Assembly: GCA_965219915.1 (NCBI GenBank)
Contig: OZ244794.1
Coordinates: 2,732,233-2,796,232, forward strand
Direction: 5' to 3'
Length of the DNA: 64,000 nucleotides
From: Rhodothermales bacterium
GTDB taxonomy: Bacteria; Bacteroidota; Rhodothermia; Rhodothermales; Bin80
Below are positions 47,654-63,509 of the stretch, piece after piece. The notes below the pieces were generated by a model, which was not told where the DNA came from, searched no databases, and was given only the letters and a program-made list of their open reading frames with translations. Each line of letters begins with the position of its first letter. Position 1 is the first letter of the stretch. The position numbers and the translations under genes are program-made.

Positions 47654-48976
47654 CTATGAAGCGCCAGCAATTCGTTGGTCATCGTGGGTCTGCACTCGGC
47701 TGCCTCGCATGCCGTAATACAGAATTATCAGGAAGCAGCCCAGCGGTACCAGATACGCCGCATGGATACCTGCCAGATCGGACACCTGACCCTGCAGGGC
47801 GGTCAACACAGCTCCCCCCAGAATAGCCATCACGAGTCCAGAAGCGCCAATCTTGGCGTCTTTTCCCAATCCCTCCACGGCGATGCCGTAAATGGTCGGA
47901 AACATCAGCGACATGCATCCTGAAACCCCTACCAGCGCTATGGCACCGACCTGTCCTCCAACCAGGACCACCAGCAGCGTGAATACGCATGCACCGGCAG
48001 CCATTATGCTCAGAAGACGCTGTGGCGAAAGAATCTTCATCAGTGCGGTGCACACAAATCGAGACGCCGAAAACAACAGAATCGAGGCCAGATAGTAGTT
48101 GGCGGCGGACGCTTCGTTCATTTCCAGTTCGTTCATCACGTAGCGGATCGTAAATGACCATACGCCAATCTGGGCGCCTACATAAAAGAACTGGGCAATC
48201 ACACCCTTGACGTAATGCGGGCGTCCCAGCAGCCGCTTAAGTGTCGGCAACAAATCTACCGACGTTTCTTGGTCTGAAGCCCGTGGGAATTTGGTAACAG
48301 CAAACAGAATCCACACCCCAACAATGATGAAGGCAATGGTCACGTACGGCCCCATGACCGCCCCCAGCTCCGCCTCCTGCATTTGTTGCAGCTGCTCAGG
48401 AGCCATCTGTGCCCGTTCCTCGGTGGATGCCTCATTTAGACCGGAGAGGATAAACAACTTCCCCAGAATCACACCCGTTATAGAGCCCAGCGGATTAAAG
48501 GACTGAGCCAGATTTAGTCGGCGGGTTGCACTCGCCTCCGGCCCCATGGCGATTGCATACGGGTTGGCGCTCGTTTCCAGTATAGAAAGACCGCCCGCCA
48601 GAATAAACAGCGCTGCCAGAAAATGTCCGTATACCATCGTTTGGCTGGCAGGATAAAAAAGCAATGCTCCAGCTGCAAACAGACCCAGCCCCAGCATCAC
48701 CCCCGACTTGTAACTGAAGCGTCGAATAAAAACAGCCGCCGGCAGCGCCAGACAGAAATAGGACCCGTAGAAGGCAATCTGAATCCAGCTGGTCTGGAAA
48801 TCAGACATGCTCATGATCTTCTTGAAGGTGGCCAGTAGCACATCCGTCATGTTGTTTGCCACACCCCAGAAGGCAAACAGACTGGTTAGCAGTATGAACG
48901 GCCACAGATACTCACGGGGAACCAACGTGCCCCTCAGTTGCCGGCCGGGTTCAGTTTTGCTCGCTTTATTCTGCAT
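47654..48976 (-). CDS. fucP: L-fucose:H+ symporter family MFS permease
   Basis: PFILLTSLFAFWGVANNMTD, IQIAFYGSYF, FSYKSGVMLGL, ILETSANPY, RRLNLAQSFNPLG, FFYVGAQI, SLMFPTIYG. Confidence 0.88.
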   Translation of the reverse strand: MQNKASKTEPGRQLRGTLVPREYLWPFILLTSLFAFWGVANNMTDVLLATFKKIMSMSDFQTSWIQIAFYGSYFCLALPAAVFIRRFSYKSGVMLGLGLFAAGALLFYPASQTMVYGHFLAALFILAGGLSILETSANPYAIAMGPEASATRRLNLAQSFNPLGSITGVILGKLFILSGLNEASTEERAQMAPEQLQQMQEAELGAVMGPYVTIAFIIVGVWILFAVTKFPRASDQETSVDLLPTLKRLLGRPHYVKGVIAQFFYVGAQIGVWSFTIRYVMNELEMNEASAANYYLASILLFSASRFVCTALMKILSPQRLLSIMAAGACVFTLLVVLVGGQVGAIALVGVSGCMSLMFPTIYGIAVEGLGKDAKIGASGLVMAILGGAVLTALQGQVSDLAGIHAAYLVPLGCFLIILYYGMRGSRVQTHDDQRIAGAS

Positions 48977-49386
48977 TCAAAGCGCCTTTTTAATGAAAGT
49001 GGAAAATACCTGTCAACTGTTGGTCCAACGTGTTCAAGGGGAAATACCGTCGGATGGCCACGATGCTGGCATTCTGGTGGAACCTTGGCTGGTCTGATGA
49101 GGCCGTTATCGTAGCCCAGCCCCAGCGTGCCTCCGATGGCTCCCAACGCCTAAATCTACGCCACCCTGCGCGCGGCTGTATCCTGATCTGGCGACTATTC
49201 ACCTCATCGGTAGACGCGGATACATCAGTCGTAATCGCTCCATTGGACGGGAGAGTCTTTTGACCCGCGTTGGTGCCCTTTGCCCCTCGGCCCGATCGCA
49301 GCCCTATATGCCGGGTATGTGAGCTTGGCTGGCAATCCAGTTTATCAGCCATCATCTCGGATCACTTGTGTAGATTTCGCCCTCAC

Positions 49387-63400: not shown

Positions 63401-63509
63401 TGGCATCGGTTACTGTTCCTGCAATTTTGCCCGTTTGGGACTGGGCCAGTGCCACACCCGGACAGGCCATGAGCAGGGCGATAAGGAGGGTAGATAGTCG
63501 AGTAGGCAT
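60429..63509 (-). CDS. TonB-dependent receptor with N-terminal carboxypeptidase-regulatory-like domain
   Basis: TGKIAGTVTDASTGEPLPGVNV...TDVDGNYFIL; plug IRGG...YYMDG, LEVLTGGWNAEYGRAMGAIINIVTK; SPRFGISHPIT, GNPDLSFEK; terminal PRQVYFGLQVTF. Confidence 0.93.
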   Translation of the reverse strand: MPTRLSTLLIALLMACPGVALAQSQTGKIAGTVTDASTGEPLPGVNVIVVGTGLGTATDVDGNYFILRVPPGLNSVQASFVGFVTVTKTDARVFIDQTTPVDFELTEAVLETDELVVTAERPPVEVDLTGSKERMSGEELANSWANTVLEAIETQAATNINGGIRGGFGLEDNYYMDGLSLRDNVSGGNLTSVNTTAISELEVLTGGWNAEYGRAMGAIINIVTKSAMDRIQGTVRARLRPAGKYHWGRNIYSRENYEWATMATLDYWTENTGGGEWVNRTPQERLDAWMNFISGDLFGEPSRRMQRYAERATWETEATIYGPITDKLGFLLSGKYLKDAPEFPAYLTYSTDWNYQGKFDYQLSRSNRLEFSGLVQGFNNTEGPRLSYWSSEDSFIAGLWGPAPFYYSGFSTFKYWPYGTSHIFQLPSPPEYMRLKSGQLKWTHVFNPASFLDVQASYTSMDLDRNNFRQLEASDTYDPNSEEFGTQWDETMIPGNPLFLLPPIFHRGHPGIFQLTAEADAWLFKAAYTNQINRFFQVKTGAMYSPQYVSKRFKAGAMPGAVYSNHATRPDFNPWDAAAYAQGKIEVNGMVINAGLRLDAFNANTKVAPSIFDPALITNMVGVPPDEIVTYSDEEHGVDTETKAVLSPRFGISHPITENTVLHFSYGHFNQRPAWQLIGGGPTIFHVFGSSAGAPHASPDTTSYTFVFYHPNTNTGNPDLSFEKIIQYELGFDQHIPGIANLDVTVYYRDGKNLTSLGVRQSPNNIGDNLFGVGGAVTTEVHFDAANPLGFAPGGGRSRVTSNGGYVDVRGLEVSLHSLLLEHARARIIFNRSFVRSGQYGFRQVFITDEEGNPVRPNTLHGVSLGDKGLSGTNNDTWNPSTSVKVIVDLFSPSEFGPALGFFHPLGDWRLNAYYVWASGHRYTYHSPGDFSTEPNNRRWKPHRNTNLRLSKAIHMPGVAEMEFSIDVHNVFNSKRLNFLTGGALETYHEEGTLPVNPTTGEESEWDWYNQGLLPRQVYFGLQVTF

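Follow-up and report, generated by a model that had tools for sequence, protein, structure and literature searches.

A TonB-dependent receptor, a partner protein with a private C-terminal domain and a PorV-family barrel: a candidate outer-membrane uptake module in a sponge-associated Rhodothermales genome

Textbook accounts of glycan uptake in Bacteroidota centre on the SusC/SusD pair. In Bacteroides, TonB-dependent transporters are also known to carry lipoprotein lids other than SusD (Price et al., bioRxiv 10.1101/2023.03.17.533168; BtuB-BtuG). In the T9SS (type IX secretion system), PorV acts as a shuttle and secretion of adjacent type B cargo depends on PorP/SprF, and retention of C-terminal domains (CTDs) by a cognate barrel has been discussed for PorU and PorZ on PorV and PorQ, and likewise for type B cargo on PorP/SprF (PMC10202324). 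Here, we analyzed a window of 64,000 nucleotides (C1:2732233-2796232 of a complete 3.55-Mb genome; window coordinates are used below unless prefixed C1) from a sponge-associated Rhodothermales bacterium. Within this window, a minus-strand operon starts with three genes, hereafter called the triplet, that code for a TonB-dependent receptor, a partner protein with a CTD, and a PorV/PorQ-family barrel. We found no published description of this arrangement in the literature searched, which included few subscription journals. We lean towards viewing the triplet as one outer-membrane uptake module at the head of a sulfated-glycan operon, in which the partner would sit on its own barrel via an uncleaved CTD and feed the receptor; such a module probably fulfils the role that SusC/SusD plays in sugar uptake. 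The parts of the triplet are as follows:

60429..63509, minus strand: TonB-dependent receptor (1026 aa) of the subfamily found in triplets, with a signal peptide, a CarboxypepD_reg N-terminal domain, a plug and a barrel (CarbopepD_reg_2, 65 bits)
58402..60378, minus strand: partner protein, 658 aa, with a signal peptide and no Pfam family (AlphaFold2 model)
58405..58737, minus strand: triplet-type CTD of the partner (hidden Markov model (HMM) of 11 CTDs)
57314..58405, minus strand: dedicated PorV/PorQ-family barrel, 363 aa (NF033709, 185 bits for a cut-off of 90)

The genome contains 11 paralogous receptor-partner-PorV-family barrel triplets, in which gene order and strand are constant and gaps are tiny (in the window, the partner stop and the barrel start overlap by 4 nt), versus only two SusD homologues. 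Across the 11 triplets, the pairwise distances of receptors, of partners and of barrels correlate with one another (Mantel r 0.73-0.84, p 1e-4): the three parts have diverged together, a point for which an earlier note made from this DNA alone had proposed a co-evolution test. By this correlation, the triplets have not exchanged parts since their duplication. The other triplets adjoin genes for a GH13 amylase, a GH38 mannosidase, heparinase II/III-like, beta-helix, amidase and FG-GAP proteins, and most of these neighbouring enzymes and proteins bear ordinary CTDs. Since the neighbours differ from triplet to triplet, the unit heads loci for different polymers. After the triplet at C1:1508617-1514748 comes a second, FadL/TodX-like barrel (PF03349, 27 bits; C1:1514758-1516158), so that the module has four genes there.

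Seventeen metagenome-assembled genomes, their titles reading Rhodothermales, Rhodothermaceae or Bacteroidota, encode orthologues of the window partner (72-97% identity). The receptor and the partner are kept in the loci of all 17 Rhodothermales relatives, and the barrel and a downstream gene for a 926-aa protein in 16 of the 16 relatives whose locus runs past the partner. Furthermore, of 121 genomes sampled across the phylum, 74 carry the CTD subclass of the partner. Copies number 5-12 in each of nine other genomes of the order, 1-6 in 17 of 20 sampled genomes of the class, and 6-22 in many other families, with none or one weak match in Bacteroidia-like families; PorV-family counts follow the same distribution. 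In 27 of 29 foreign CTD loci, the next gene downstream is PorV-like, and all three genes were present in 20 of 20 extended loci from 20 other genomes, where the receptors score 724-872 bits against the HMM of the genome's triplet receptors. The usual gene order was seen in 18 of these loci; in the other two (L073 and L084, from two genomes of one family of the phylum), the barrel is in the middle and the order is receptor, barrel, partner. On contigs labelled KSB1 and others, full-length homologues of the window partner belong to the same triplet and have GH2, GH62, sulfatase and major facilitator superfamily genes as neighbours; the labels Anaerolineales and Deferrimicrobium of some triplet contigs may reflect misbinning and were not relied on. 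Conservation of the triplet, which the earlier note had proposed to check, is thus documented by 11 copies in the genome, 17 orthologous loci in Rhodothermales and 20 of 20 loci sampled across the phylum.

The window partner was matched to the SusD family by neither Pfam nor NCBIfam, and a single-sequence PDB search with it returned nothing useful. Its 70 homologues (25-96% identity, nearly all at 34% or more) are all unnamed or annotated as 'hypothetical', and many acidic and aromatic residues are invariant in the family. In the AlphaFold2 model (predicted local distance difference test (pLDDT) 86, predicted TM-score 0.85), the protein is all-beta, and a beta-rich N-domain (residues ~30-365) is followed by a long helix, an Fn3-like domain (435-526) and the CTD (~548-658), with a beta-sandwich at residues 556-656. 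Foldseek matched this model to Fn3 tandems, to PorU, and to the beta-sandwich N-domains of GH116 and GH94 enzymes. No catalytic domain was matched by Foldseek, and the likeness of the N-domain is to non-catalytic beta-sandwich domains. This is consistent with the earlier note, which did not take the partner for a freely released enzyme.

The 11 partners, which are 612-1293 aa long and belong to no Pfam family, have unrelated N-terminal parts and share only their last ~110 residues. An HMM built from these 11 CTDs retrieved 14 open reading frames (ORFs) at 117-151 bits, with every other ORF of the genome at 31 bits or less and the CTD of PorU (29.9 bits) among the best of the non-triplet ORFs. 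The type A CTD models TIGR04183 and PF18962 gave no match at E 0.01 or better for the window partner and 20-27 bits for its sister CTDs. In a profile-profile comparison (hhalign), the triplet CTDs matched the genome's generic type A CTDs with a probability of 96% (E 3e-9, 85 columns), and by this match the triplet CTD forms a subclass of its own within the T9SS type A CTD, from whose ordinary form, carried by ~75 proteins of the genome, it differs by an insert of ~10 residues. NCBIfam models found the CTD of the window partner weakly like the end of PorU, and that of a distant homologue like the end of PorZ. The remaining three CTD carriers, encoded in tandem at C1:2130547-2141465 (~1160 aa, 117-125 bits), are orphans paralogous to the partner of one triplet, with no receptor or barrel beside them. 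They end with the KKR(I/V)QLNVY tail also seen in the partner of the C1:1318285-1326519 triplet, and may be alternative partners that share the barrel of that triplet.

The receptor lacks the identity of a SusC: TIGR04056 reaches 80 bits versus a cut-off of 368, over residues 28-157 at the N-terminus only, and the SusC signature TIGR04057 was not matched in the NCBIfam scan. For the window receptor taken alone, the Pfam Plug match is weak (19.8 bits vs 23.9). The plug is present, as a profile of the 11 paralogous receptors matches the plugs of Cir (4e-21) and FepA (1e-16). The same profile matches the N-terminal domain and plug of a SusC homologue (6e-18) and, over 553-750, the barrel of PhuR. 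The barrel of the window receptor was recognized by OMP_b-brl_3 (29.7 bits), and its C-terminus (...QVTF) has an aromatic-residue end.

The window barrel remains under the equivalog cut-offs of both PorV (NF033710, 60 vs 250 bits) and PorQ (NF033711, 133 vs 220 bits), and scores 17 bits against PF11751 PorP_SprF. While nothing useful was obtained from a single-sequence PDB search, the profile of the triplet-barrel paralogues matches the solved PorV 6h3i_F at 3e-25, followed by the FadL-family TodX. The genome has 15 PorV-family genes above cut-off. Outside the triplets are a housekeeping PorV (304 bits) adjoining PorU (968 bits), a PorQ-like protein (216 bits for a cut-off of 220) and a PorV2-like protein. 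This PorU-PorV pair rules out the window barrel as the genome's only porV. The existence of a separate housekeeping porV and T9SS core was therefore verified for PorU, PorV, the PorQ-like protein and SprA (1697 bits), but not for GldK, GldL and GldM, which were undetected. GldK-like matches were rejected as paralogues of the formylglycine-generating enzyme, one of which is directly beside a sulfatase gene (L086); a second GldK-like match (L085) sits among oxidoreductase and TIM-barrel genes.

Downstream of the triplet, the operon continues to a sugar transporter gene. Its other features, with the predicted promoter, are as follows:

63648..63676, minus strand: sigma-70-like promoter TTGACA-17-TATCAT (11 of 12 matches)
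55614..57281, minus strand: S1 sulfatase, 555 aa, with a twin-arginine signal and a CSPSR formylglycine motif (PF00884, 216 bits)
55005..55610, minus strand: ankyrin-repeat protein, 201 aa, without signal peptide (ankyrin family matches)
53524..55008, minus strand: second S1 sulfatase, 494 aa, with a twin-arginine signal and a CSPSR motif (PF00884, 216 bits)
50680..53460, minus strand: six-hairpin CAZyme-like protein (CAZyme, carbohydrate-active enzyme), 926 aa, with weak GH127-like matches and an (alpha/alpha)6 barrel in its model
49387..50670, minus strand: DUF6786 lipoprotein, 427 aa, with a LAAC lipobox (PF20583, 532 bits)
47654..48976, minus strand: FucP-type L-fucose:H+ symporter, 440 aa, following a 410-nt gap (TIGR00885, 480 bits for a cut-off of 280)

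These rows agree with the nine co-oriented genes of the earlier note: nine ORFs, all on the minus strand, occupy the positions it had given, Pfam and NCBIfam scores support the families it had named, and the spacing from the receptor gene to fucP is +50, -4, +32, +3, -4, +63, +9 and +410 nt. The sulfatase-ankyrin-sulfatase block is kept in 13 relatives, and DUF6786 in 13 of the 17 relatives' loci. The signal-less ankyrin gene sits between the two genes for sulfatases exported by the twin-arginine translocation (Tat) pathway, with a 3-nt gap on one side and a 4-nt overlap on the other. A 121-aa ORF (48990-49355, minus strand) in the gap before fucP was rejected as a gene, having no family match and being poorly conserved. 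It is 58-67% identical in L003 and L009, far below the 90-97% of its neighbours there, and is therefore probably a non-coding spacer.

No enzyme of the operon bears a CTD. In the model of the 926-aa protein (pLDDT 81), an (alpha/alpha)6 barrel stands between two beta-sandwiches, and the Foldseek matches of this model are the PL27 lyase 5nok (3e-10), GH94, the GH95 fucosidase 2eab (3e-7) and GH127 (5e-6). As modelled, this is a six-hairpin CAZyme-like protein that belongs to no named family and for which GH95 is only one of several similar folds. Our literature search found nothing on DUF6786. The proposal that the operon targets sulfated fucose held in part: the two Tat-exported CSPSR sulfatases and the equivalog-level FucP agree with it, but a recognizable fucosidase or fucose-catabolic gene was missing. 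Neither a fucosidase or fucoidanase (GH29, GH95, GH141, GH107, GH168) nor a fucose-catabolic gene was recognized in the ten ORFs of the locus, and no fucose-catabolic family was found among the other window ORFs scanned, a subset of those in the window. Fucose specificity is thus partly supported, FucP being the one gene from which it is predicted.

Past the end of the window, upstream and on the same strand (C1:2796450-2804451), lie a GH116 gene, then a SusC gene (TIGR04056, 747 bits, plus the signature) and a SusD gene (PF07980, 98 bits; PF14322, 76 bits), with 708 bp between the end of the SusD gene and the receptor gene. The system had been called SusD-less; this applies to the operon itself, which has no SusD gene, and to the window, where none adjoins the receptor gene, but not to the wider locus with its canonical SusC/SusD pair. 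The pair is found at this site in the closest relatives (L001, L002, L003, L006, L008 and L016). In L004 and L009, GH116 directly precedes the receptor gene without SusC/SusD, and the pair was not seen upstream of the receptor gene in more distant relatives, which keep the triplet. Among relatives that are ~90% or more identical, the pair is variably present, which points to a recent event between GH116 and the receptor gene, either an insertion or a loss.

Most public sequencing runs that contain sequence of the locus carry a sponge metagenome label, and the two best runs bear coded organism names. In the sponge metatranscriptome X30, one contig of 12,654 nt (depth 83, ~91% identity) covers positions 51000-63593, from the receptor gene to the 926-aa gene, and continues for 60 unaligned letters beyond 63593. 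Depth drops to ~20 over the DUF6786 gene and ~7 over fucP. In the same dataset, separate contigs carry GH116 by itself (depth 61) and SusC together with SusD (depth 105), with breaks in intergenic regions. In the X20 run, contigs were found only over 56970-63642, one of which spans the receptor-partner junction. The contig end at 63642 is located 6 nt past the -10 hexamer of TTGACA-17-TATCAT, the best sigma-70-like site in 47-64 kb, which lies 139 nt upstream of the receptor start codon. The triplet operon and the SusC/SusD pair are separate transcription units.

Elsewhere in the window, a 2074-aa protein that consists almost entirely of ankyrin repeats (34045-40269, minus strand; PF00023, 806 bits) is encoded in a segment with a G+C content of 58-59% versus ~50% around it; it looks eukaryote-like and fits a sponge symbiont. 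A 951-aa protein with CarboxypepD_reg and an OMP_b-brl_3 barrel (11659-14514, plus strand) is without triplet partners and adjoins a DDE transposase (14877-16688, plus strand). A 599-aa ORF without Pfam family (44185-45984, plus strand) lies in the most G+C-rich stretch of the window (62.5%).

We propose that the module could work in the following way. Sec would take the partner across the inner membrane, and the type IX system across the outer one. Instead of being removed, the private CTD of the partner would stay bound to the dedicated barrel, as those of PorU and PorZ do on PorV and PorQ, so that the partner is held at the surface beside the receptor. By analogy with SusD and the surface glycan-binding proteins that serve SusC, the beta-sandwich N-domain of the partner may then capture glycan fragments and pass them to the receptor. 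Breakdown of these fragments in the periplasm would fall to the sulfatases exported by Tat, the six-hairpin protein and the DUF6786 lipoprotein, and a fucose-like sugar would enter the cytoplasm through FucP. Within this genome, such a module would work beside the separately transcribed SusC/SusD pair and not instead of it.

Several observations weigh against an uptake module of this kind. Duplication of the whole unit would, by itself, also yield correlated divergence of the three parts without any interaction between them, and, with a SusC/SusD pair next door, SusD need not be replaced by the module here. The matches of the partner to GH116 and GH94 N-domains are weak (TM-score 0.26-0.28), leaving room for a new enzyme. 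The RNA evidence consists of assembled contigs of related strains (~91% identity) in which carry-over of DNA is possible, although the position of the contig breaks at the borders of gene units argues for RNA. Finally, models for GldM (TIGR03517, PF12081), GldL (TIGR03513) and GldK (TIGR03525) detect none of these proteins in the genome. The GldL model found no match in 14 genomes of the same class and matches only Bacteroidia-like families; because it misses the whole class, the missing motor matches are little evidence either way. In another reading, the receptor-like and PorV-like barrels would form an export and assembly device for the partner, independent of the type IX motor, with import not its main task. 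GldL was undetected in 14 of 14 class genomes that all have the triplet CTD subclass or expanded PorV families, and GldK and GldM are undetected with it in this genome. Yet the motor models match Bacteroidia-like families only, SprA, PorU and PorV are well conserved here, the receptor has an importer-like plug and N-terminal domain, and the gene context is catabolic, making such a device very improbable in our estimation.

The barrel could also be a private secretion shuttle only, taking the partner from the SprA translocon, after which the partner would be released or fixed to lipopolysaccharide and the receptor would be merely co-regulated. PorV is itself a shuttle and adjacent type B cargo depends on PorP/SprF for its secretion (PMC10202324), PorV is matched by the barrel profile at 3e-25, and a private CTD subclass suits a private shuttle no less than a private anchor. 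Co-regulation alone, however, is hard to reconcile with a single receptor subfamily that is found with the pair in 20 of 20 sampled loci and shares its divergence, and ordinary CTD enzymes in the same loci manage with the housekeeping PorV. We regard a barrel that is only a shuttle as unlikely. Somewhat less likely still is a partner that acts as a surface enzyme of a new family, for example a glycan-cleaving one, making oligosaccharides for the receptor rather than serving as a binding protein or lid. The operon has no outer-surface endo-acting enzyme and none of its enzymes is a CTD protein, the N-domain of the partner has no named family, and many acidic and aromatic residues are invariant in the partner family; in contrast, all fold matches are to non-catalytic beta-sandwich domains, and the N-terminal parts of the 11 partners are unrelated, as in binding proteins. 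An uptake module with the partner anchored on its barrel remains the reading towards which we incline.

On a larger scale, the triplet might represent a third general architecture of TonB-dependent nutrient uptake, next to plain receptors and receptors paired with lipoproteins, in which a capture subunit delivered by the type IX system is held non-covalently on a private barrel, and might be the main glycan importer of non-Bacteroidia Bacteroidota and related phyla; we hold this generalization tentatively, with slightly less confidence than the reading of the window locus itself. If the triplet is an uptake machine, prediction of polysaccharide-utilization loci based on SusC/SusD misses most such loci in these marine, sediment and sponge-associated lineages, and the role of PorV-family barrels widens from secretion to nutrient capture. 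A natural comparison is offered by the close relatives that differ in the presence of SusC/SusD beside the same triplet, both units being found at comparable contig depth in the sponge metatranscriptome; the locus allows triplet and SusC/SusD to be compared directly where both are expressed within sponges.

Among described systems, SusC/SusD (RagA/RagB) is similar in that a CarboxypepD_reg receptor heads a catabolic operon and always adjoins the gene of a surface partner, with many paralogues beside differing enzymes. Unlike SusC/SusD, the triplet has a receptor that is not a SusC (80 vs 368 bits), a partner that is all-beta with Fn3 and CTD domains and is not a SusD-like lipoprotein, and always a third gene for a PorV-family barrel; furthermore, the true SusC/SusD pair next door is a separate unit. 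PorU-PorV and PorZ-PorQ share with the triplet, as proposed here, an uncleaved-CTD protein held on a PorV-family barrel, and the window CTD is weakly PorU-like; the window barrel, at 133 bits for PorQ and 60 bits for PorV, is nearer to the former. Those, however, are single housekeeping pairs for cargo processing, whereas the triplet is present as 11 pairs, each with a receptor and a catabolic locus. Type B cargo and PorP/SprF (e.g., SprB-SprF) likewise combine a cargo gene with an adjacent dedicated barrel gene, and there too the barrel is proposed as an anchor; in contrast, the triplet CTD is of type A ancestry (hhalign, 96%), its barrel belongs to the PorV/PorQ family (PorP_SprF, 17 bits), and pairs of type B cargo and PorP/SprF come without a TonB-dependent receptor. 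The non-SusD lids of Bacteroides (BtuB-BtuG) resemble the triplet in having a non-SusC receptor and an adjoining non-SusD surface partner, but these partners are lipid-anchored lipoproteins, whereas the anchor proposed for the triplet partner is a barrel, reached by the type IX route.

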